In this document: piece by piece, positions 2 to 11,501 of the stretch | Position numbering within the stretch: the first letter of the stretch is position 1 | Layout: every line of letters starts with the position of its first letter | DNA from: Bdellovibrionia bacterium | GTDB taxonomy: Bacteria; Bdellovibrionota; UBA1018 | Length of the DNA: 16,174 bases | Direction: 5' to 3' | Assembly (NCBI GenBank): GCA_045805065.1 | Contig: JBJMMA010000237.1 | Coordinates: 1-16,174 of the forward strand | The notes under the pieces: generated by a model | The model's database searches: none | Seen by the model: only the letters and a program-made list of their open reading frames with translations | What the model was told of the DNA's origin: nothing | Program-made: the position numbers and the translations under genes

Positions 2-604
2 CTCTGGGCGGACTTCAAACCTCATTGGGCGTTGGTGGTGTGGTGGCCGATGGTTCTTGGGCTCGCGCTTGCCTGGGCCAAGCAGGGGAGTGCCTGGGCA
101 AAGTGGCAGACCCGTTACGGGCTTACTCTGGGAGCAGTGGTCCTGGTCTGTTGTCATGTGCCAGTGGTTCAATACGCCATTTACAAGGCAAAGAGCGAGC
201 AAGCGGATCCAAGACTGGATGTGACGAACGATCTTTACGGGTGGCAAAAGCTGGGTGAGTTTTTGCGGAAGCAGCCTGGAAACGAAGATCTTTCGATTCC
301 TGTTTTAGGGTCTCGCTATCAAACCGCATCACAGGCATGGTTTGCCTTAGGTGCAAAAGCCAGGGTCAGCATGCTGCCGTTGGATGTTAAGTCCCGCGAT
401 GAGTGGCCTAATCTCTCTGTATCAAAAAGCTTAGGACCTGACTGGTCTGAGCTGACTCATCCCGTTTTCTTTGTTGCGGATAACCGATATGACGCTGCTC
501 CTGAGTTTCCTCATTCTCGCTGCAATAAAGCGGGAAGGGTCCAAGAGGATCGCGCTGGCTATCCCGCCAAATGGATCGATGTCTGGCGCTGTGAGCCCAT
601 GTGA
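2..604 (+). CDS. 3' part of an ArnT/PMT-like (GT39/GT-C) membrane glycosyltransferase, truncated at the window edge
   Basis: Frame is open from position 2 (LWADFKPHWALVVWWP...). Hydrophobic helices are followed by LYGWQKLG and SRYQTASQAWF, which resemble the C-terminal periplasmic region of GT39-family proteins. Confidence 0.6.
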   Translation, partial: LWADFKPHWALVVWWPMVLGLALAWAKQGSAWAKWQTRYGLTLGAVVLVCCHVPVVQYAIYKAKSEQADPRLDVTNDLYGWQKLGEFLRKQPGNEDLSIPVLGSRYQTASQAWFALGAKARVSMLPLDVKSRDEWPNLSVSKSLGPDWSELTHPVFFVADNRYDAAPEFPHSRCNKAGRVQEDRAGYPAKWIDVWRCEPM

Positions 605-663
605 TCAGCTTGCCTGATCAATGTGTGGTGATCAGCTTGCCTGATCACATGTAAAATGATCAG
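598..663. repeat. Intergenic 20-bp direct repeat GTGATCAGCTTGCCTGATCA (601-620, 628-647), self-complementary; possible bidirectional terminator
   Basis: Two identical 20-mers. Each folds as TGATCAG/CTGATCA with a 5-nt loop. Outer arms 598-608 and 641-651 are exact reverse complements. Five TGATCA hexamers start at 602, 615, 629, 642 and 657. Lies between convergent genes. Confidence 0.85.
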
Positions 664-1865
664 TTCGTTACCGTGCCGTTTGTAGCAGCAGGAACGACCT
701 GGACCGAATCCGTGCGAATCCAACCAGCGATCTCTTCGCCATTTTGTGAGGCGCTAGCCGATTGCGGAAGGACCTTAAACCAGCGATCGTTCCAATCCGT
801 GACGACGTACTTGGCTCTCTCGTCGGCATTGCCTACGACGGGATAAACCATTCCAGGGCCTGAACGAAGGTGGATGTTCTTTGCTTTGGGTTGAACGACC
901 AAAGGTGGATTGTCGCTCGAGAGCTGTACCGGGTGAGGAGCAGTCGGAGCAGGCATGCGCTCTGGAGCCATCGCCTGGCTTCGAACTTGATCCGAATATC
1001 CCGTATTAGGCTGAGCTTGTGCGACTTTGGCCACAGCAACAGGCGTAATCGGGTGAGACGTTTGCGCTACAGTGTCGCTCTCCTCGGCTCGTGCCGGGGC
1101 CTGGTGGCGATCGCTTAAAGTTGGGCGAGTCTTTTCGATGATCTCACCGCTTTGCATGAGCAGATAGAGGCCTGATCCCAGCGCAAAGGCCGCTGCAATG
1201 CCAATGGCCATCGGAAGAAGCCGGATTTTTCCAGCCGCTGCCGGAACTTCCGGAAGAGGCTCTGGGAAAAGCCCCATATTATTCACGCCATTCACGCCGT
1301 TCATGTAAGAAGGCATTGCGTTGCGGTCAACGCTTGCGCCTGCAGGCGCATTCGGGCCTGAGAGGGGACGTGCACCTGCTTCTTGTGACACTGGAGCAAA
1401 GGGTTGGGGATGAGAGATCTTGTCGAAAGGAAGATCCATCGCTGCAAGCGGATTTGAGCGATCTGTTTCAACGTGAGACGTATTGGCAGCGTGCAGGGGA
1501 TTGATCATTCCAGATGCCGTGTTTCGGCGGGTTGCGGGCTTAACAACCGGTTTGTCCGAATGAGCGGCAGGTGCTGCCGACATTGCGGCTGAAGACGCAG
1601 ATTGGGAAGCAGAAGTGCCTGCATTGTTCGTATAACGATTGAGAGTGCGGGTCGCTGCTTCGCTCAGAAGCGGATTTTCAGAAGATTCCGGAAGCAGGAC
1701 TTTTTCACCCGCCGGCGCGCGGTCCACTTTGATGATGTTGACTTCGGCCTTTCTGACGAGTGCGTATCCACCACATTGATAGCACCGAGAAAATGACCAG
1801 CTTGTGGTCATTTTATCATCAGCAATGCCTAAACTCACACCACAGTGCGGACAATTCCAACGCAT
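660..1865 (-). CDS. Bitopic membrane protein: N-terminal zinc ribbon (CPHC-x19-CYQC), disordered linker, one TM helix, periplasmic C-terminal bacterial SH3 (SH3b) domain
   Basis: Two CxxC pairs at the N-terminus; TM segment LLPMAIGIAAAFALGSGLYLLM; C-terminal NIHLRSGPG...WFKV...GWI SH3b pattern; RBS-like GGGAG before the ATG. Confidence 0.8.
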   Translation of the reverse strand: MRWNCPHCGVSLGIADDKMTTSWSFSRCYQCGGYALVRKAEVNIIKVDRAPAGEKVLLPESSENPLLSEAATRTLNRYTNNAGTSASQSASSAAMSAAPAAHSDKPVVKPATRRNTASGMINPLHAANTSHVETDRSNPLAAMDLPFDKISHPQPFAPVSQEAGARPLSGPNAPAGASVDRNAMPSYMNGVNGVNNMGLFPEPLPEVPAAAGKIRLLPMAIGIAAAFALGSGLYLLMQSGEIIEKTRPTLSDRHQAPARAEESDTVAQTSHPITPVAVAKVAQAQPNTGYSDQVRSQAMAPERMPAPTAPHPVQLSSDNPPLVVQPKAKNIHLRSGPGMVYPVVGNADERAKYVVTDWNDRWFKVLPQSASASQNGEEIAGWIRTDSVQVVPAATNGTVTN

Positions 1866-1910: not shown

Positions 1911-2705
1911 TCAATGGGCAGTAGTTGCCGCATCAGGAGCCGCGCCCACGGGCTCCGCCAAAGGCACTCCAGTGGCCTCAGGAGCGAGGATGCGAAGAAC
2001 GACGCGTCGGTTCTTTGACAATGCTTCCTCATCCCACTCTCCGGCGGGATTGCGGGAAGGGGCTTCCGGCCGGGTGTCGGCATAGCCGATGGCGGCAAGT
2101 TTTTGAGGCGAGAACCCGAGATCCAGAAACATTCGCACAACGCGCGAGGCACGCGCTCCGGAGAGTTCCCAGTTGGTGGGGAATGTGCCGCCTAAGATCG
2201 GTCTGCTATCGGTGTGACCCTCAACTATGATCCGGTACTCTCTCTTGTCGGCTTGTTGACGATTGGAGATCGTCGCGATGAGTTTATCAAGCACGACCTT
2301 GCCTTCGGGCTTCACGTCCGCCGAAAGGGTGTCAAAGAAGACGGTGGATTGAAACGTCACGCTCACGCCAGTGGCGTCCGTTTTGACGTTTGCAAGCTTT
2401 CCAAGCTGAGCATCGCTGATGACTTGAGTGATGAAGTTGGCGAGCTCCTGAACCTTGGGTTTTTCGTATTTTCCTTTGAACTGTGTGGCGAGCTCTTTCT
2501 TGGCTGACTCAAACTTGTTTTGGTCCACCGTAGAAAGCGCAAACATCATGATGAAAAACCCGCAAAGCAGGGTCATCATGTCGGCATAAGAAACCAGCCA
2601 GTTGGTCTCGTCGTGATGCTGAGTCTGATAAGGATTGGATTCCTTATGCCTCTTTGGCAGAGGAAACTCATGCTCCTTATTGTATTTGATCCTCTTCGTA
2701 TTCAC
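1911..2705 (-). CDS. motB: MotB/PomB-family stator subunit with OmpA-like peptidoglycan-binding domain
   Basis: TM WLVSYADMMTLLCGFFIMMF with the conserved Asp; C-terminal VEGHTD, NWELSGARA, GYADTRP and NRRV motifs; GTGA overlap with motA. Confidence 0.95.
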   Translation of the reverse strand: MNTKRIKYNKEHEFPLPKRHKESNPYQTQHHDETNWLVSYADMMTLLCGFFIMMFALSTVDQNKFESAKKELATQFKGKYEKPKVQELANFITQVISDAQLGKLANVKTDATGVSVTFQSTVFFDTLSADVKPEGKVVLDKLIATISNRQQADKREYRIIVEGHTDSRPILGGTFPTNWELSGARASRVVRMFLDLGFSPQKLAAIGYADTRPEAPSRNPAGEWDEEALSKNRRVVLRILAPEATGVPLAEPVGAAPDAATTAH

Positions 2706-3485: not shown

Positions 3486-3986
3486 TTAAGCGGCCTCCTT
3501 CTTCAGTGCGATCTTCCAAAGCTGGTATTGGCTGATCACGTAATTGTCATCCAGTTCACGAAGTCTTGCGACGAGGTGTTTCACGCAGCTTTCGTAAAAG
3601 CGCACCTTTGTGGCAGGTGAGTGATTCAACAAGGCTTGAAACGCTTCCTTGGAAACAAAAAAGAGGTCGCATTCCGTCAGGGCTTTAACGGTTGCGGAGC
3701 GCGGATTATTGTCCACCAACGACATTTCTCCAAAAAAACTGCCTTTGCGAAGTTGGCCGATGTCGTAGTTCTCGCCCGTAAGCTTGTTGGTCTTGAAGAT
3801 CCCCACCATGCCCTCAACGATCAGATACAAACCCCAGGAGAGCTCGCCTTCAATCACGATGTTGGAATGAGGCTCGTATTTGATCCATCGGCCGAGCTGA
3901 AGCACTTGGGTGAGCTCAGAATCCGTCAGAGGCTGAAGAAGCTTGATCTCTTTCAGGAGAGAGATGCTGGGCTTTTGCGTACTCAT
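3486..3986 (-). CDS. Stand-alone cyclic nucleotide-binding (CNB/CAP_ED) domain protein, no HTH
   Basis: IVIEGE, LYLIVEG and FFGEMSLVDNNPRSATV phosphate-binding cassette; 166 aa ending after a C-helix; ATGA overlap upstream and 1-nt gap to motA. Confidence 0.92.
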   Translation of the reverse strand: MSTQKPSISLLKEIKLLQPLTDSELTQVLQLGRWIKYEPHSNIVIEGELSWGLYLIVEGMVGIFKTNKLTGENYDIGQLRKGSFFGEMSLVDNNPRSATVKALTECDLFFVSKEAFQALLNHSPATKVRFYESCVKHLVARLRELDDNYVISQYQLWKIALKKEAA

Positions 3987-6409
3987 CCAGCCTCCCGTCT
4001 TGAGACGCCGTCCGGAGTAATGCTTCCAACGACGCCACCGGCTTGGATGTTGGTCGTCATATCGCCGTGTTGATCGGCGAACATGCGCTCATTGGTTTCG
4101 ACAAGATTGATCAGACCGTCGTTTGCCATGAGCTTCATTCGGTTCAAGATCTTGCGCTCGATCGCAAAGTAGGTCTCGCGGTTGACTTGCGGCGCATTTG
4201 CCACTTCGTCCTCAAGCTCGATTGCAAGCTCACGAGGGGACTTGGCGAAGATCGCGTCACGGACTGCAGGAGGCGCTGCCTTGAGGAACTGGATCAACTC
4301 ATCATGGCGCAGGCTGAGCACCACTTCAAGCAACTGACCATCGCGAAGATAGCGAAGCGTCTCGACGCTGACCAGCTTGCCTTTGACGTTGCGAGCACTG
4401 TCAGGACTTGATGACTCGAGGTTTTTCATGACGTCACGTTGCAAGCCCGTGCCCGTGCGCTCAAGCAGGCTGACCAGGACTTCAGAGCCAGGGAGCGCTT
4501 CAGTGTTGAGGCGAGGATTTTCACGGCGCTTGCGCTTGAGGGCGTTTGCGACGTTGAAGATGAAATCACGTGGCAAGTAATCGATGCGGCTGAGCTCGGC
4601 CAGCAGCTTCATGCGGATCTCTTCATCAAGATGTCCGTAAATCATGGAGCGCTTCTGAGCGTCGCATTGAGTGAGGATAATGGCTTTCACGGTAATAGAC
4701 TCATTGCGGATCATTTCGAGGATCTGCATCGCATCCATCTCAGCCAGGAAGTCAAAGAGGTTCGAGGAGCGGTTGCCGATCACGGCGAGTTTACCCGATA
4801 CTGTGCGCTGATGGAGCTTGCGGAGAAGATCCAGGCGCTCGACATCCTTCAGGTCAATCGTTGTGCGAGCGTAGTACTCCATGAGCTCGTTCATATCGCC
4901 CTGCAAGCTTGGGTCACGGAGCATGTCGATGACGATGCTCTCGCCAAAGATATGGAGATAGAGAGCGGTGATTTCAATTCCATCCTCGGTGATGACGCGC
5001 GTGAAGACATGCTTGGCAACACGTGGATGTTGGGAGAAGACCTGGACCAAGTCATCCGTCAGGCGTTGGATCTCAAGTCTGCGCGAGAGGGTGGTGGAGG
5101 TATCACTGGAACCCTCAGAAGAGCTTCCCATCTCATCGGATGCCGCTGACTTGTTAGATAAGCTTGAGGCGGCAGTCTGGCTTGGAGTATGCGTCACCAA
5201 AGCGTGGCGCTGACGCATGCTTGCGATCGCGATGAAGATCAGAAGAGAAAGGATCGAGCAGCCAAAGATCAGAGCGTAGACTTTGAAGTTCTGAAGCTCG
5301 GCATGAACGGCGTCGCCATTCTCGACGCGCTCAATTTTCTCATAGTGCTCAAAGCGCTCTTTTTTCGTGTCGTTTGAATTCGATGTGTTTGAGGCATTCG
5401 TCGCAGCCGTCGAATTGAGCTCGTTGGAGGAAGAATTATTGGCGTTCTCATTGTGCTGGCGCGACTCAACACTGCGGGAGTCACTGCTCTTGTTTTCCAT
5501 TTGTTCGCGGTTGAGCTTCTCGCTGGAGAGCCCGCGTTTTGCACCTGTGAATTCGCCCTCGTTATCGAGAGTTCCATAGCCAGGCACCGCGGAATTCATG
5601 GACGAGGGTTTTGGGAAGCGTAAGGTCTTCGAGTTCAGTGCGACGTGTTTGAATGAGCTCGTCTTGAGTTTGATCATCTCGACGATATTAGTGCGCTCTT
5701 CGGGGCTTAAGGACTCATCAATCAGGAGCGTGCCCCCGATTTCCTTGATCTTGATCGCGATATCGCCTTCCTGGACAAATTCACCTGGGGCAGCGTACTG
5801 GGCTTCCTCAGCGTTGACGGCTTCGGTTTTCAGATTGAAGTCCGTGAACAAGCACTGTTCCGGGCAGAACTGCTGGATCAGAGTGTTGACGGTGTTTTCA
5901 AAGTTCTTTGCGATGCGATCGCGAAGCTCCGCGACCTTGCCCTCGGATCCTGCTGGATCAGGGAAATGGACAACATCCATATCGACGGTGACAGGGTAGT
6001 CAAGCGTATCGAGATAGCGTTGGATGAGCTCGAGAAGCTTTCCGCGCGAGACGGCGCCAATCTTGTCGGCCATCAGAATCTTCATCTTTGCGGAAGTTGG
6101 CGCAAGAGAATCAGGTCCGACCGGAGGTGGTTCATCAAAGCCTGGTGCGATCGTTTCAGGGACGTTAAGATCGACTTGAACGGCAACAGACAGAAGCTTG
6201 CACTGGTCATGACAATACTTATCGAGAAGCGGTTCCACCAACCGGCGGATCTGGTTCTCAGTCGACTTTTGGACAGTCTCGCGAACCGTGCTTGCTCCAG
6301 GCAAGGTCGCTGCAAGAGAAGGGGTTGCCAAGGAGCCGCCGATCAGTCCAGCGAGCACGATCAGAGCTGATAATCTCATCATCAGAGCTCTTTTCATGAA
6401 ACTTCTCAT
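3983..6409 (-). CDS. Membrane-anchored FliG-domain protein; apparent FliF-FliG-like fusion (signal peptide, two periplasmic repeats, TM, FliF-tail-like helix, FliG N/M/C-like domains)
   Basis: aa 551-625 resemble FliG-M (FDFLAEMDAMQILEMIRNE...). aa 679-770 resemble FliG-C (LKAA...ELEDE...ERKILNRMKLMANDGLI). TM at aa ~376-397; N-terminal signal peptide. The FliG call is strong; the FliF-like call is inference. Confidence 0.85.
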   Translation of the reverse strand: MRSFMKRALMMRLSALIVLAGLIGGSLATPSLAATLPGASTVRETVQKSTENQIRRLVEPLLDKYCHDQCKLLSVAVQVDLNVPETIAPGFDEPPPVGPDSLAPTSAKMKILMADKIGAVSRGKLLELIQRYLDTLDYPVTVDMDVVHFPDPAGSEGKVAELRDRIAKNFENTVNTLIQQFCPEQCLFTDFNLKTEAVNAEEAQYAAPGEFVQEGDIAIKIKEIGGTLLIDESLSPEERTNIVEMIKLKTSSFKHVALNSKTLRFPKPSSMNSAVPGYGTLDNEGEFTGAKRGLSSEKLNREQMENKSSDSRSVESRQHNENANNSSSNELNSTAATNASNTSNSNDTKKERFEHYEKIERVENGDAVHAELQNFKVYALIFGCSILSLLIFIAIASMRQRHALVTHTPSQTAASSLSNKSAASDEMGSSSEGSSDTSTTLSRRLEIQRLTDDLVQVFSQHPRVAKHVFTRVITEDGIEITALYLHIFGESIVIDMLRDPSLQGDMNELMEYYARTTIDLKDVERLDLLRKLHQRTVSGKLAVIGNRSSNLFDFLAEMDAMQILEMIRNESITVKAIILTQCDAQKRSMIYGHLDEEIRMKLLAELSRIDYLPRDFIFNVANALKRKRRENPRLNTEALPGSEVLVSLLERTGTGLQRDVMKNLESSSPDSARNVKGKLVSVETLRYLRDGQLLEVVLSLRHDELIQFLKAAPPAVRDAIFAKSPRELAIELEDEVANAPQVNRETYFAIERKILNRMKLMANDGLINLVETNERMFADQHGDMTTNIQAGGVVGSITPDGVSRREAG

Positions 6410-7212
6410 GGCGTCACCTCCGCCTGGCTCTCACCAGAGCTAGAGGGCGATGCTGCAGGAATGCGTCCGCCGCGTCGCTCGATGAAGCGACGAAGAGTTT
6501 GATCTCCTGGATTGAACCGAAGTGCTTGTCCCCAGGACTTCAAGGCAAGATCTCTGCGACCTACGCGATCCAGAAGCGTGCCCTTCATCTCATGAAGTTT
6601 CGGATCGGTTGGGAAATCGTGGATCATGGAGTCCACTTCAATCAGGCCGGCCTCATAGCGACCCATGCGATAGAGTTGCTTGATGTGATCCATGGATGCC
6701 AGATAGCTCTTCTGGCGTTCAGGGGTCATTTCTTCGGATTGAACCAGGCCCAGACCTTTTTCGATATCGCTTCTCTTTTGCTCATCTTCAAAAGGCGCTT
6801 GGGAGAACTTTCTTGTCAGCTCGCGGTCGGTCCTGGTCGGAGCCAGGTTTGCGTAAGCGTTTTCAGCAGCGGGTACAGCAGAGTCATCTGCCGCCGAGGC
6901 TGGAGCGCGCGAAGCTGATCCGCCTGAGACAGGGAGCACGAAATCGGTAACTCCTTGGTTTGCGCGGGAGAGCTCAACCTCAACTGCCTTGTTTCCGTTT
7001 TTGGAGCGGAAGATCATCGTGTCCGCTGGATCTGCGTTATTTGCCAAAGTTGGCTCATAATCGCCGAAAGGATTGGAGATCGGTTTGTTTTCCTCTTTTG
7101 AGGTGTCGGCGGCAAAAATGCCACGAACGCTTGAGCAGGCGACGCACGAGAGCGACGCGAGAGCCAGGGCTCCTGCGATTCTCATCGTGTTTTTTCTCGT
7201 CGTCCGTTTCAC
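6406..7212 (-). CDS. Lipoprotein with C-terminal TPR repeats
   Basis: Basic N-terminus, hydrophobic stretch and lipobox (CVAC); TPR-like helices YRMGRYEAGL...PKLHEMKGTLLDRVGRRDLALKSWGQALRFNP; GTG start with AAGGAG RBS; ATGA overlap with the next gene. Confidence 0.85.
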   Translation of the reverse strand: MKRTTRKNTMRIAGALALASLSCVACSSVRGIFAADTSKEENKPISNPFGDYEPTLANNADPADTMIFRSKNGNKAVEVELSRANQGVTDFVLPVSGGSASRAPASAADDSAVPAAENAYANLAPTRTDRELTRKFSQAPFEDEQKRSDIEKGLGLVQSEEMTPERQKSYLASMDHIKQLYRMGRYEAGLIEVDSMIHDFPTDPKLHEMKGTLLDRVGRRDLALKSWGQALRFNPGDQTLRRFIERRGGRIPAASPSSSGESQAEVTP

Positions 7213-7224
7213 GTTCTCATCTCC

Positions 7225-8334
7225 TTAGAATAAAATGTGGATTCCTAAGCCTGCTTCAACTCCGCCCACTTCGCCTGCCGGATTGCTCGAAATAAATGCC
7301 GTGGATTTCGGGCGATATCCAAGAGTTGGCGAAACCGCATAGCTCTTGCCCAGGCGCCATTCGTACTGGGCGCGGAGCAGGCCGCCTAAAAATCCTGAGG
7401 CGTAAGTTCCACCCAGGCCAAGCATGAAGCTTCCACGAGGATGGTTATAGTTCTCTTCATCACCGATGAAGTTCCAGCCATGGACAAACAAAAGAGTCGC
7501 GTTGACGCCCGAGTAAAGGTCCACGGTGGAGCTGGTTGATCCTACGATGCTTGAGGCGTTCTTTAGGACATCGATCTCAAATCCCACTTCTTTGTGGCGA
7601 TTGTCGTAGCGCTCGACGGCGCGGAAGCCGATGCCTGCAGCGCCAGTACGTTCGCCCACATTTGGCTCAGAAAGATAAAGCACTCCCAGGCGATATTGAA
7701 TCGTCGGGACATACTCTGCCTGCTTGCGGGAGTCATCAATCTGGCTGTAATCGACGCCGCGGCGGGCAGCCGAGGTGCGCGAGTTTTCAGAATTATAAGT
7801 TCTGCTCCAGATGATCGTTCCTTGCTCGGGATCCGTAATATGGAGAGAGAGAAGCATTCCCGAAGATTGATAGGCGAATGAAACGTCCATGAAATGAAGG
7901 ATGCCGTTCTCTTTGGCGATCCTGGATAATTCAACTGGGTTTGAGTCAGGTGAGCTCACGACGACCTTATCGCCGCTGAGCTGCGTGCGCTTGGAGCGGC
8001 ACTGCAGACACTGAATCACGCGAGTCTTGCTGGTCTTCAAAATACGCTCACTCACCAGAAGCTCAAGATGGCTTCGGAATGAAGGAGGCACGTTCTCGCT
8101 CATGGCGATGTTGCGCACAGAAAGATCTTTGAGGCCTTGAACGTTTCCGTTCTTTAGGTCGTATTCAAAATCAGAAAGCACATCTTCGAGCACTTCGTAG
8201 AAGTTTCTGGTCTTTGAATCGCTGTCGGCGGCTTTCGCGACAGAAGGGTGAACGCCCGCCACAAGTGCCAGCCCTACGGCCAAAGCCGCGCTGATGCTGA
8301 GATTTTTAAATGTCCTGTTCAATAGACGTCGCAC
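7225..8334 (-). CDS. Exported protein: N-terminal alpha/beta domain with CxxC (possibly CsgG/TolB-N/FlgO-like) plus probable C-terminal outer-membrane beta-barrel
   Basis: Signal peptide ending AKA; CLQC; LSLHITDPEQGTIIWSRTY pattern; C-terminal alternating Gly/aromatic strands ending GLGIHILF (terminal Phe, BAM-type signal). GTG at 8334 is preferred over 8352 because AAGGAG lies 6 nt upstream and the putative promoter position fits. Confidence 0.7.
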   Translation of the reverse strand: MRRLLNRTFKNLSISAALAVGLALVAGVHPSVAKAADSDSKTRNFYEVLEDVLSDFEYDLKNGNVQGLKDLSVRNIAMSENVPPSFRSHLELLVSERILKTSKTRVIQCLQCRSKRTQLSGDKVVVSSPDSNPVELSRIAKENGILHFMDVSFAYQSSGMLLSLHITDPEQGTIIWSRTYNSENSRTSAARRGVDYSQIDDSRKQAEYVPTIQYRLGVLYLSEPNVGERTGAAGIGFRAVERYDNRHKEVGFEIDVLKNASSIVGSTSSTVDLYSGVNATLLFVHGWNFIGDEENYNHPRGSFMLGLGGTYASGFLGGLLRAQYEWRLGKSYAVSPTLGYRPKSTAFISSNPAGEVGGVEAGLGIHILF

Positions 8335-8356
8335 TTGAGGCTCCTTCCTCACTTGC

Positions 8357-8383: not shown

Positions 8384-8443
8384 TGAAAAAGTGCGTATTT
8401 CTGGACACTCCTTTTCTCTTTGTACGAAATGAACAAAATTGCC

Positions 8444-8471
8444 TCACGCTCTGGGAACTATTTGCCGAGAA
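8444..8471 (+). promoter_or_regulatory. Possible sigma28-type promoter for the divergent lipoprotein
   Basis: TCAC-N16-GCCGAGAA. The -10 box matches 7/8, but the -35 is weak and the site is very close to the ATG. Confidence 0.35.
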
Positions 8472-8480
8472 AAAGGGGAG

Positions 8481-9575
8481 ATGAAAGCGAGTCTTCGTCA
8501 TAGAATTGGGTCCGTCAAGTGGCTGACGCTGATGCTTGGAGCCGGGGGTGCCTGGCTTGGAGTCGCAGGGTGCAGCACAACGAACACCCTTTCTCCGCAT
8601 GAACCAGCGAAAGAAGTCGCGTTGCCAGCGTACGCTTATCTGCCGCATCCGGCAGGGCATACAACGGGCGATGTCATCAGCCTTTTTACTGAGAGGGGTG
8701 CGCCCTCGCGCGTGACTATGGCCAAGTGCGAGGATGAATTCCGCACGCTTTACTCCAAGGCGCAAAGTATCGAAGAGCGCACAAAAGGCGTTCGGGAACT
8801 AGTGAGTCGCAATCCTGCAGCCTATCATTGGTGTTTCTATTCTCAGATCCTTGGTCTTGAGGAAGGGCTGAGTCAGGATGAGTTTGTTGATCAGAAGCAA
8901 AAACGCGTCATGACGACCTACGAGTATCTCGTCCCGGTTGCTCGCGCTTTCATGAAAGAGTTCCAGGATTCCCGCTATCTCAGATGGGCCATTCAGGACT
9001 ATCGGCGCCTTGCGGATCTGTATTTCTATCGCAAGCTCGAGATGTCGCCCCATATGAGCAGCGAACTGGTGGATGTTGCCGTTCCGGTGGACGAGCGTTC
9101 GTCAGCTCGCAATGAGGGCGCTGCCCAAGATGCGAAAAAGATGAGCGTACTCGAGAAGTATAAGATCGGAAACGCTCTTCCTGAATCCTCCGTCCTTGTT
9201 CAAGCGAAACAGCAGGCAGATGATGAGAGCGCAGCAATTCCAAAGAAGGCCGAGTTGCCACCTCCTGTTGTCGAAGCCGTGGCTGAGAAGAAAGAAGAGC
9301 CAGCTGAGCCTGCAGTTACGGATCCGGATGTTCAAGACACGATTCAGACTGCGATGGAGCTTGCTCGCCAACGCAAGGAAACGGCGACTCAAAACCGGGC
9401 TCCTGCCGGGAAGGTCGAGTCGGCCCCTGCTATGATACCAGCTCAAGCTCTAGTGCCTGCACCGGCGGTTGTTCCAGTTGCTGCTCCAGTTACAGCCCCG
9501 GTTGCTGCCCCGGCTCCAAAAGTTGTCTCACCGGTGACAGAGCCTCCCAAAGAAGAACTTCCTGCAATCGAGTGA
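8481..9575 (+). CDS. Hypothetical lipoprotein with helical core and Pro/Ala/Glu-rich C-terminal tail
   Basis: ATG at 8481 after a purine-rich stretch; lipobox VAGC; helical domain with two Cys (AKCEDEF, YHWCFY); low-complexity PAPAVVPVAAP tail. Confidence 0.75.
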   Translation: MKASLRHRIGSVKWLTLMLGAGGAWLGVAGCSTTNTLSPHEPAKEVALPAYAYLPHPAGHTTGDVISLFTERGAPSRVTMAKCEDEFRTLYSKAQSIEERTKGVRELVSRNPAAYHWCFYSQILGLEEGLSQDEFVDQKQKRVMTTYEYLVPVARAFMKEFQDSRYLRWAIQDYRRLADLYFYRKLEMSPHMSSELVDVAVPVDERSSARNEGAAQDAKKMSVLEKYKIGNALPESSVLVQAKQQADDESAAIPKKAELPPPVVEAVAEKKEEPAEPAVTDPDVQDTIQTAMELARQRKETATQNRAPAGKVESAPAMIPAQALVPAPAVVPVAAPVTAPVAAPAPKVVSPVTEPPKEELPAIE

Positions 9576-9653: not shown

Positions 9654-11501
9654 TTAGAACTGATCAGGGTTATAGCCGCGGTTGCGCAGCTCGCGTTTGA
9701 CGCCCTCGAGCAAGGACTGAATTCGGGATCTTTCGCGAACGTAATCGATATTCACAAGCCCTGCGGGTTTGCTCTCGAGAATTTTATCGAGCGTTTTGAG
9801 CTCCTGCATCTGGTTGACATAGGCGGAAGACGCATTCGTTGCAGCGATAGGGCGCCTCGTGACCAGTGATACTTCAGTACCCCGTTCGTTATTCAGGACA
9901 GAGCGTGAAGGACCTGCTTCTGCCTGAGCCCTCAAGGCCTGGAAATTTTCGTTCAGGGCCTCATTGGCATTTCTGAAGCCACTTGCTTCAAAGTCAGTTT
10001 TGGCATTCTCCACGAACATTTTTGCAGCACCTTCAGTGTCACCCGCACGGATTCTCATGCCGAGAAGCGCTTCGCGGTCCCGCTGGGAGGCCAGCATATC
10101 GGGCGCGTTTTTTAATACACGGTCATACTGCGAAAGCGCATCCTTGGTCAAAGCCTGGCCTGAAGTCAGATCGCCCACGGAAGCTGCCGATTCCCCTGCG
10201 ACTCGGTTTGCTTCAGCAAGGCCACGGACGTTGCGAAGGTACTCGCGCTTCTCGGCGGCGGTCATTGAGGAGAAGCGATACCCCTGGCTGTCCACTTCCC
10301 GAAGGAGTCGGTCTCTTAAATCAAATACTTTGAGTCGAGACTCCTGCTCGTATTTTGGGAGTATCTTGAAAGTTTTTGTCTGGGACATCGATGCTCTGAT
10401 TCCGGCTGAATCGGCAGACGATCCTGCAATCCCGTTTCTCATCAGAATGGCACGCTCGCGGGAAGTGAAACCTGCGCGTCTTAAAATGCGCGCCTTGTCG
10501 CGAAGCTGTTCCGGGGTGTAAGTCATGAAACCTGCACCGGTGTCTTTACCCACTTCGTGGGCAGCAATGAGCGCATCTTTTTCTGCCTTCGAAAGAGTTC
10601 TGCCTAAAAGAAATTCGGCCACACCTTTTCGATCAGCGTTGGACAACCCGCCAGCCGTGGGCATGATTGCGTCTCCAGCCTTGGCAAGCTTGCTGGCTGC
10701 AGCCTCGACCTGAACTGATTTGGACAACTCGACAAGGCGATTCAAGCGAGCCACGCGGAAAGCTGCAATTGCTGGTCCGGCCGCCGTGAGGGCTGCGACC
10801 GTGCCGGCTTCACAGTACATCTCTGCCAGAGCCTCGGTATTGTAGCACTCGCGTTTGACTTTCAGCTCATCCAGAAGCTTTCCTGCCGCTGCCTTTAGAT
10901 CAACAGTTTTCTTGAGATCCCGTTTCACTGGATTGATTTCTTTTGAGACGTCAGCGGCGCTTTTCTCAGTCATTCTTTGCGTGACGTTGTAAGCCTTGGT
11001 GTTGAACTCCTTGAGGAGGTCCGAGCAGGACATTCTTTCAAGACTTTGCGTGGGCGGGGTCTTGAAGCTCTCACCGGGGGGAAGCGCATCGTTGAACTGG
11101 TCGATCATATCGAGTTTTTGCTCGATATCCGAATTACAGGTCGAAGAATGGGTTGCGAATGCGTAAATGCCTTTTAGAACATCCCAAATAGCTTTGCCTG
11201 TGGCATTCCACGCTCCCAGGCTGCATCCTTTCGTGCGTGCGATGGCTGCATCCAATGATGTTCGCTCACAGAAGCTCTTCATGTCGCAGGAGTAGAGCTT
11301 CTCCGAGTCTTTGATATCAGCGCAGGCCGCGGCGCGTGTTACTTCGCATCCTTTTTCGAGAACGCCGTTCGAATGGTTACTGAGTGTCGAAGCTGCACAG
11401 CTTTTCTCGGAGAAACAGGGGCTATCCGATGAATACGACTGGGGAACGTTACTTAGAATGGCAAGTACTGCGACTGTGAAAAACCTGTAGGCTTTCTGCA
11501 C
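9654..11501 (-). CDS. Secreted hypothetical protein, Cys-rich N-terminal part and Cys-free helical C-terminal part
   Basis: 615-aa ORF; GTG start with GAGGGGG RBS; signal peptide; 11 Cys in aa 29-230 and none afterwards; hydrophobic segment at aa ~232-250. Confidence 0.8.
   Translation of the reverse strand: MQKAYRFFTVAVLAILSNVPQSYSSDSPCFSEKSCAASTLSNHSNGVLEKGCEVTRAAACADIKDSEKLYSCDMKSFCERTSLDAAIARTKGCSLGAWNATGKAIWDVLKGIYAFATHSSTCNSDIEQKLDMIDQFNDALPPGESFKTPPTQSLERMSCSDLLKEFNTKAYNVTQRMTEKSAADVSKEINPVKRDLKKTVDLKAAAGKLLDELKVKRECYNTEALAEMYCEAGTVAALTAAGPAIAAFRVARLNRLVELSKSVQVEAAASKLAKAGDAIMPTAGGLSNADRKGVAEFLLGRTLSKAEKDALIAAHEVGKDTGAGFMTYTPEQLRDKARILRRAGFTSRERAILMRNGIAGSSADSAGIRASMSQTKTFKILPKYEQESRLKVFDLRDRLLREVDSQGYRFSSMTAAEKREYLRNVRGLAEANRVAGESAASVGDLTSGQALTKDALSQYDRVLKNAPDMLASQRDREALLGMRIRAGDTEGAAKMFVENAKTDFEASGFRNANEALNENFQALRAQAEAGPSRSVLNNERGTEVSLVTRRPIAATNASSAYVNQMQELKTLDKILESKPAGLVNIDYVRERSRIQSLLEGVKRELRNRGYNPDQF

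Follow-up and report, generated by a model that had tools for sequence, protein, structure and literature searches.

A natural, conserved single-chain FliF-tail/FliG junction in a paralogous protein encoded beside its own MotAB stator in a Bdellovibrionia bacterium

In the flagellar motor FliF's C-terminal tail and the N-terminal domain of FliG (FliG-N) belong to two separate proteins and co-fold as a split domain, solved for T. maritima (5TDY) and H. pylori (5WUJ) and described in excerpts of PMC7355467. Whether this interface also occurs naturally as one chain, and in which machine, is the question raised by an open reading frame (ORF) of 808 aa at 3983-6409 on the minus strand of a DNA stretch from a Bdellovibrionia bacterium (JBJMMA010000237.1). 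The whole stretch of 16,174 nt is referred to as the window. An earlier sequence-only reading had placed a native FliF-FliG fusion junction at 4919-5080 (minus strand), the translation of which, RLEIQRLTDDLVQVFSQHPRVAKHVFTRVITEDGIEITALYLHIFGESIVIDML, corresponds to aa 444-497 of the ORF. A natural and conserved single-chain FliF-tail/FliG junction was found at aa 476/477. The overall reading considered likely here, the rotor mechanism being a part that we infer, is that aa 434-476 descend from a FliF tail and continue directly into a FliG-like protein from G477, in a paralogous protein with MotAB of its own in the operon. Because a FliF-tail homologue joins the FliG-like protein at G477, the flagellar FliF-C:FliG-N split domain is, by homology, one chain in this protein.

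The proposed order of a transmembrane (TM) helix, a serine-rich linker and the junction was recovered, as the hydrophobic segment at aa 377-397 is followed by an S-rich stretch and then by aa 444-497. Tails were compared with a canonical set of 30 fliF-fliG loci from the phylum, using the last 110 aa of FliF. Alignment of the full 808-position profile of the family with these tails by hhalign gave a single match, aa 444-479 on the two-helix tail, with a score of 19.3 and a P value of 0.08. Scores as high were reached by 3 of 60 column shuffles, 5 of 60 landed between the TM helix and the start of FliG, and a reversed FliF tail scored 13.7. Taken alone, this direct full-length match is a weak sequence argument. 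With the TM helix excluded, the tail piece of the family matched the tail piece of FliF directly at P 0.0022, and the family profile against 477 aa of FliF resulted in three weak matches, colinear on one diagonal, at the ring-building motif (RBM), the start of the TM helix and the tail.

An exhaustive and extended profile search identified a less diverged branch of the superfamily, group B, comprising 11 sequences of 590-720 aa, with one named Bermanella metagenome-assembled genome (MAG) among the sources. Group B aligned with the family at P 1.3e-29 over aa 431-773 and with canonical FliF at P 2.2e-10, the latter in one 164-column alignment that begins at the end of RBM3, crosses the TM helix and stops in the tail, 15 residues before the FliF C-terminus. 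Using TM-free pieces, the family tail was linked to the group B tail at P 2e-4 and the group B tail to the FliF tail at P 1e-5; the score was reached by 0 of 40 shuffles in both comparisons. Since TM-free pieces still link, the TM helix is not the driver of the tail and FliG-N links. The register obtained via group B is that of the weak direct alignment: H461-P462-R463 of the family corresponds to H332-P333-R334 of group B and to N-P-Q of FliF, P462 to P532 of the genome's own FliF (561 aa), and D476 to its residue 546. A two-helix FliF-type C-terminal tail is present at aa 434-476, and the group B links bear out the likeness to a FliF tail that had been noticed for aa 444-476. The periplasmic parts of group B and FliF were also related (P 1.9e-7), PF08345 gave sub-threshold matches in group B members (E 7e-4 to 9e-3), and aa 219-269 aligned to the last beta-alpha-beta of the RBM3-like part of group B (P 0.005).

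The FliG side of the junction was assigned through the same group. The alignment of group B with canonical FliG (P 3.1e-28) starts one residue after the end of the FliF alignment, at FliG residue 10, and, with group B as the bridge, G477-I-E...A482...G489 corresponds to G11-I-E...A16...G23 in the FliG of the genome itself. Piecewise, the FliG-N piece of the family (477-541) was linked to group B at P 2e-7, and the group B piece to canonical FliG 11-69 at P 1.1e-6. In a VIA-align comparison with the model described below, Salmonella FliG residue 4-5 fell on aa 475-476. The tail therefore runs into FliG helix 1, as had been suggested. A direct hhalign comparison of 477-560 with FliG-N was weak (508-545 to FliG 60-105, P 0.05) and its register was unlike that of the bridge; the group B register was preferred. 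Measured against FliF and FliG of the same genome, the join has cost FliF about 15 residues at its C-terminus and FliG about 10 at its N-terminus, and a linker of only about 2 residues (E-D) separates the tail from FliG helix 1. FliG-N is about 23-25 residues short, in agreement with the shortening originally proposed, because the family spans are shorter both in the profile alignment (477-534, 57 residues, versus FliG 10-92, 82 residues) and in the VIA alignment (301 model residues versus 324 FliG residues). The deleted part, some 22-25 residues towards the end of FliG-N, can tentatively be placed near FliG 70-91, after helices 1-4, on the basis of the bridge alignment.

AlphaFold2 (AF2) was run on a 119-row alignment. 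For aa 430-808 the model was all helical, with a mean pLDDT (predicted local distance difference test) of 88.6, and all 13 Foldseek matches at E ≤0.001 were FliG. VIA-align placed aa 475-775 (model residues 46-346) on Salmonella FliG 4-327, aligning 288-291 residues at Z 13-14. Ahead of FliG residue 4 there remain two helices, aa 434-460 and 462-476, so that the fold search at the junction found two helices and then a FliG-like fold. When the chain was cut at 476/477 and aa 477-552 were modelled with aa 430-476 as partner, an ipSAE of 0.65 was obtained (runs 0.54, 0.66 and 0.65; best control 0.00); the ipSAE mark used is reached by 116 of 157 solved complexes versus 2 of 215 mismatched pairs. 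At least 85% of the contacts, in which aa 440-476 touch 477-509 and 522-544, were shared across runs, and the pLDDT of the partner was at least 74. As a similar complex has already been solved, this pass is a likeness and no proof of binding. Packing of the tail and FliG-N as a single-chain split domain is supported by these models, in which the cut pieces pack as a unit.

The model of aa 30-400 (mean pLDDT 80.0) consisted of two alpha-beta-beta-alpha-beta modules, a disordered stretch and the TM helix. The top 7 Foldseek matches were FliF MS-ring chains (E 8e-8 to 9e-6), and the modules aligned with FliF RBM3 by VIA with Z 10-11 and a root-mean-square deviation of 2.6 Å over 98 residues. An RBM-type periplasmic fold is thus predicted by the model, and the two halves of the protein are FliF-like and FliG-like in character. 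A further group of five sequences, group C, aligned to the family at P 3.5e-29; its link to FliF was not significant (P 0.06). Group C has a single periplasmic module, which aligned to both duplicated modules of the family (5621-6295, minus strand), at P 1.5e-12 and within the P 3.5e-29 alignment.

That the fusion is the native state, as had been claimed, was confirmed by its relatives. A word-indexed search returned 206 proteins at E ≤0.001; the best 120 of these were 542-839 aa long, nearly all 730-840 aa, and the named sources among the relatives listed were Bdellovibrionota or Oligoflexia MAGs. A scan of species-representative genomes yielded 72 related loci. One long frame was present at 66 of them (58 with the periplasmic and the FliG marker in one frame, 8 with variant motifs), the remaining 6 were interrupted by contig ends, and a two-gene form was seen at none of the 72. 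A hidden Markov model (HMM) of the junction (aa 430-560) matched 63 of 70 library representatives of at least 550 aa, including all 56 of the main family at independent E-values (iE) ≤8e-22; 7 distant representatives matched weakly and 7 had no match. A check for a frameshift came out the same way: contigs of four soil runs, which belong to one study, are possibly the source of the assembly and are not independent, covered 4922-5387 without a differing letter or indel.

The layout of the protein and its operon is given in Table 1. FliG_M (PF14841) and FliG_C (PF01706) were the sole Pfam matches of the 808-aa protein, both above cut-off, and the NCBIfam fliG equivalog TIGR00207 scored 54.7 bits, far under its cut-off of 226.7. 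In the family alignment the cytoplasmic half was strongly conserved, and the CxxxC pairs C66/C70 and C182/C186 were invariant in 30 aligned homologues. In FliG_M, the site corresponding to EHPQR, which we take to be the FliM-binding motif, is degraded: hhalign pairs NEHPQT with NESITV and the motif Arg with the invariant E605, the positions reading E-S-I-T...E. The charged torque-helix residues of E. coli FliG are R281, D288 and D289 (from part of PMC7564593), and D734 and E735 align with the canonical acidic pair. At the extreme C-terminus, I-K-K-V-A-G-W is conserved in most family members, and the window protein and its two closest relatives have RREAG or RREVG; this conserved end may be a docking peptide.

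Table 1. Coordinates of the fusion gene, its parts and its neighbours in the window. Locus counts give presence among the 72 related loci with order and strand the same.
Feature	Position	Strand	Basis or remark
375-aa upstream partner, no Pfam family	7225..8352	(-)	61/72 loci
268-aa upstream partner, no Pfam family	6406..7212	(-)	66/72 loci
808-aa ORF: FliF-like periplasmic half, one TM helix, FliF-tail-like helices, FliG-like N-M-C	3983..6409	(-)	
N-terminal hydrophobic segment, aa ~11-34 (signal peptide or first TM helix)	6308..6379	(-)	read from the sequence by eye
Periplasmic alpha-beta-beta-alpha-beta module 1, aa 39-147, CxxxC	5969..6295	(-)	AF2 model; VIA to FliF RBM3
Periplasmic module 2, aa 155-263, internal duplicate, second CxxxC	5621..5947	(-)	AF2 model; VIA to FliF RBM3
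S/N-rich low-complexity periplasmic stretch, aa ~270-350, modelled as disordered	5360..5602	(-)	pLDDT <50; length variable
TM helix, aa ~377-397, preceded by the conserved EKIERVENGDA motif	5219..5281	(-)	alignment, AF2 model; weak colinear match to FliF TM start
S-rich cytoplasmic linker, aa 398-433	5111..5218	(-)	variable alignment columns
Two helices, aa 434-460 and 462-476, assigned by homology to the FliF C-terminal FliG-binding tail	4982..5110	(-)	profile alignments, model
FliG-N-like region, aa 477-552, start G477 = FliG G11	4754..4981	(-)	profile alignments, models
FliG_M domain, aa 562-631, EHPQR positions mostly altered	4517..4726	(-)	Pfam 35.3 bits (cut-off 25)
FliG_C domain, aa 663-769, acidic torque-helix segment ELEDE	4103..4423	(-)	Pfam 45.8 bits (cut-off 23.3)
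166-aa cyclic-nucleotide-binding protein, start overlapping the fusion-gene stop	3486..3986	(-)	Pfam 4e-20; 58/72 loci
MotA-type stator A subunit, 260 aa	2702..3484	(-)	Pfam; 64/72 loci
MotB-type stator B subunit, 264 aa, plug and OmpA-like domain	1911..2705	(-)	Pfam; 60/72 loci
401-aa protein, N-terminal Cys-rich zinc-ribbon-like start	660..1865	(-)	weak SH3_3, E 0.005, below cut-off; 43/72 loci

Ordinary fliF (561 aa), fliG (337 aa), fliH and fliI are found on another contig of the same genome. Because the genome keeps separate fliF and fliG, the fusion gene is a paralogue. At each of the 30 canonical loci of the phylum, FliF and FliG are encoded by two adjacent frames. The fused state is accordingly native to a paralogous, non-flagellar module, while the flagellar FliF and FliG of the organism are separate. 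One clade of canonical FliF (loci L078, L079, L089, L095, L099 and L101) has a different C-terminal region, with no TM helix in the last 110 aa and the tail KLRLQAAKMQ...V.REW, and the FliG of this clade starts with a long N-terminal extension.

The operon around the fusion gene is conserved and includes a stator pair of its own. Its genes form a tight block on the same strand, in the order 375-aa protein, 268-aa protein, fusion, cyclic-nucleotide-binding protein, MotA and MotB. From its sequence, the 268-aa protein is a putative lipoprotein or tetratricopeptide-repeat-like protein, and the 375-aa protein is putatively outer-membrane-like, as suggested by an N-terminal signal and a C-terminal F. 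The gene for the cyclic-nucleotide-binding protein is missing in one subclade (loci L062-L068 and L070, 42-45% identity), where none is found between the fusion gene and motA; the same applies to group B loci. MotA and MotB genes were located directly downstream at 44 and 40, respectively, of 55 metagenomic group B loci, and a weak homologue of the 375-aa protein was located upstream at 33 of 55, many of the loci without these neighbours being short contigs.

The best PDB matches of MotA were flagellar MotA 8ucs_C and 6ysf (1e-34), and also PomA. MotA_ExbB, the MotB plug and the OmpA-like domain were matched by Pfam in the stator pair, and the NCBIfam equivalog cut-offs were missed (147 vs 394). 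The SYADMMTLL segment of MotB presumably carries the channel Asp. Basic residues at MotA positions 87/88 and E/D at 98 were kept in 60 orthologues. No other flagellar gene, export-gate genes included, was detected in the operon by a Pfam scan of the window. Beyond the operon, a divergent upstream gene of 378 aa (8439-9575, plus strand), matching no family, is syntenic at 49 of 72 loci, and a 200-aa gene (2-604, plus strand) beyond the 401-aa gene at 34 of 72. The 615-aa ORF at 9654-11501 was present at 0 of 72.

Other FliF- or FliG-like sequences were noticed in the searches. A metagenome contig of 4437 bases contains one ORF of 818 aa (P0276) with YscJ_FliF, YscJ_FliF_C and FliG N, M and C, all with strong E-values. 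This could be a canonical FliF-FliG fusion over the full frame, or else it reflects a lost stop codon or an assembly error. Another sequence, P0275, looks like a patchy version of it. A third FliG_C-like sequence in the genome is a stand-alone ORF of 146 aa (L003 1468-1908, minus strand, G000:C105; FliG_C E 1.7e-7), located beside a gene for a small-membrane-protein-like product. In another genome of the phylum, a weak FliG_N match (E 9e-5) was observed at G055:C140:10071-10340 within an open frame of 553 aa, which may encode another long FliG-like protein.

The content of the operon bears on the possibility that the 808-aa protein is part of, or accessory to, the organism's own flagellar motor, for instance as another rotor-like ring or as a scaffold for the stator, and is not a separate machine. 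With no flagellar gene other than the stator pair in the operon, with conserved neighbours that are envelope proteins, belong to no flagellar family and keep their order in 72 loci, with the FliM-binding positions mostly altered, and with the same module in distant marine group B loci (known there from the loci alone), this alternative is considered unlikely, despite the genome being flagellated, MotA and MotB being of flagellar type and the fusion gene having no known phenotype. Since the fusion gene is found in a conserved operon with its own MotAB, the fusion protein probably serves as the rotor in a MotAB-driven machine other than the flagellum. In such a machine the periplasmic RBM-like modules would oligomerise into an inner-membrane ring, and the fusion would fix one FliG-like unit per ring subunit. 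Peptidoglycan-anchored MotAB would push on the FliG_C-like torque helix, and the movement could be passed to the two conserved envelope partners. A FliM/FliN switch would not take part, given the degraded EHPQR site, and the small cyclic-nucleotide-binding protein may be a regulator.

Several observations weigh against the reading of the 808-aa protein as a FliF-tail/FliG fusion that works as a rotor. Pfam FliG_N, YscJ_FliF and YscJ_FliF_C gave zero matches in the protein: PF14842 (FliG_N) did not match it at E ≤0.01 and did not match it in the whole-genome scan either, and YscJ_FliF (PF01514, RBM1/2) and YscJ_FliF_C (PF08345, RBM3) failed to match, so that recognition of FliF or FliG-N by direct HMMER/Pfam search yielded nothing. 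The FliF-tail assignment depends on one intermediate group of 11 sequences, group B, because the direct similarity between the family and FliF is weak (P 0.08 full-length, 0.002 piecewise). The alpha-beta-beta-alpha-beta fold is a common one, the C-terminal domains of CDF transporters reaching Z 8-9 versus 10-11 for FliF, and H. pylori FliG-N (5wuj_B) aligned best to the C domain of the model and not to its N region. At the torque interface the position of canonical FliG R281 is E727, with R/K726 adjacent. In the HMMER alignment, S90 and S97 stand at the canonical MotA R/E positions, with conserved charges 1-2 residues off; this MotA/FliG charge alignment is interrupted by an indel.

The failure of the Pfam FliF models and the common periplasmic fold would also suit a protein in which aa 434-476 are extra or rearranged armadillo (ARM)-type FliG-N helices and not FliF, that is, a membrane-anchored FliG paralogue with a periplasmic domain only convergent on the RBM fold. 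ARM helices of FliG have similar xPxxAxxIF motifs, and hhalign places 461-472 on FliG 23-34 at P 0.06, or at P 0.021 over 11 columns piecewise. The FliF-tail alignment is, however, both longer (32-38 columns) and stronger, directly as well as via group B, and the group B tail matched FliG-N only at P 0.23. The contiguous RBM3-TM-tail alignment of group B with FliF, followed immediately by FliG from residue 10, and the match between the periplasmic parts also favour FliF descent, and ARM-type helices are therefore regarded as an improbable explanation, somewhat more so than a flagellar accessory. That two genes were merged into the single ORF by an assembly error or a frameshift artefact is scarcely credible, for although the source is a draft genome of 262 contigs, 66 of the 72 loci from other assemblies are single-frame and none is split, the best 120 of the 206 relatives are nearly all of full-length size, and the soil-run contigs, from one study and possibly the source sample, agree letter for letter.

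Descent of aa 434-476 from a FliF tail, joined to a FliG-like protein, is thus retained as the favoured reading, and the protein can be compared to known systems on this basis. As in the 5TDY and 5WUJ split domains, a two-helix FliF tail is found in the same register, with a conserved Pro opening helix 2, and is followed by FliG helix 1 (G-I-E..A..L....G), and the model packs the tail on the FliG-N helices. Unlike these, the fusion is one polypeptide, its FliG-N is short, and its operon is paralogous and non-flagellar.

The fold and N-M-C order of canonical FliG (TIGR00207; PDB 3HJL, 8UMX and 8WIW) are shared (VIA Z 12-14 over 4-327), as are the FliG_M and FliG_C matches above the Pfam cut-offs and the acidic pair on the torque helix. 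Canonical FliG is a separate soluble protein encoded just after fliF, whereas the 808-aa protein is fused in one frame and membrane-anchored via its FliF part, with EHPQR and the R281 position changed. Like canonical FliF, it has a hydrophobic N-terminus, periplasmic RBM-type modules, a TM helix and a cytoplasmic tail, and its best structural matches are RBM3 and MS-ring chains. In contrast to canonical FliF, it lacks RBM1/2, contains CxxxC pairs and a long S/N-rich insert, and has no export-gate genes nearby. The canonical FliF ring has about 33-34 subunits and houses the type III export gate.

Fusions of FliF and FliG are known from the laboratory. Full-frame and deletion fusions have been made in Salmonella, and a deletion fusion without most of FliG-N builds smaller C rings with n = 31 (both from excerpts of PMC7355467); a Vibrio FliFG fusion is represented by PDB 8z4d/8z4g (PMC11481574, in part). 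In these, as in the 808-aa protein, FliF is joined end-to-end with FliG, and the shortened FliG-N parallels the Salmonella deletion fusion. As had been suggested, the natural shortening may alter ring size. The laboratory fusions are mutants or constructs of a real flagellar rotor with full FliF, whereas the 808-aa fusion occurs naturally, is conserved across at least 72 genomes, lacks FliF RBM1/RBM2 (no PF01514 match), has a duplicated RBM3-like module and keeps FliG-N helices 1-4. No description of a natural FliF-FliG fusion or of this operon was found in the accessible portions of the full-text literature, including PMC12505986, PMC13277936 and PMC13104615. The works found for 'FliF-FliG fusion' were, among the matches listed and as far as their available text goes, all on the Salmonella/Vibrio flagellar motor and laboratory fusions.

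A more far-reaching proposal is a stand-alone MotAB-driven rotary ring without rod, hook, filament, export gate or FliM/FliN, which turns or pulls periplasmic and outer-membrane partners and is controlled by cyclic nucleotides in most lineages. This is offered tentatively, as a possibility with somewhat less than an even chance; if true, it would be a second kind of machine made of flagellar-motor parts. That the single-chain FliF::FliG lies near the ancestral form of the MS/C-ring interface, as opposed to being a fusion made later, is doubtful. Through the FliF-C:FliG-N interface the C ring passes its torque on to the MS ring. The interface also fixes the 1:1 stoichiometry of the two rings and has so far been studied as a split domain and via laboratory fusions. 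A natural and widespread single-chain form means that evolution used the fusion solution, with a trimmed FliG-N, and the single-chain protein is a simple construct for structural study of the interface. Of greater weight is its setting: the protein is accompanied by a MotAB pair of its own, by conserved envelope partners and by no further flagellar components, which suggests that the flagellar torque generator is put to use outside the flagellum, with a bearing on the origin of the motor and on the further jobs that may be powered by MotAB stators.

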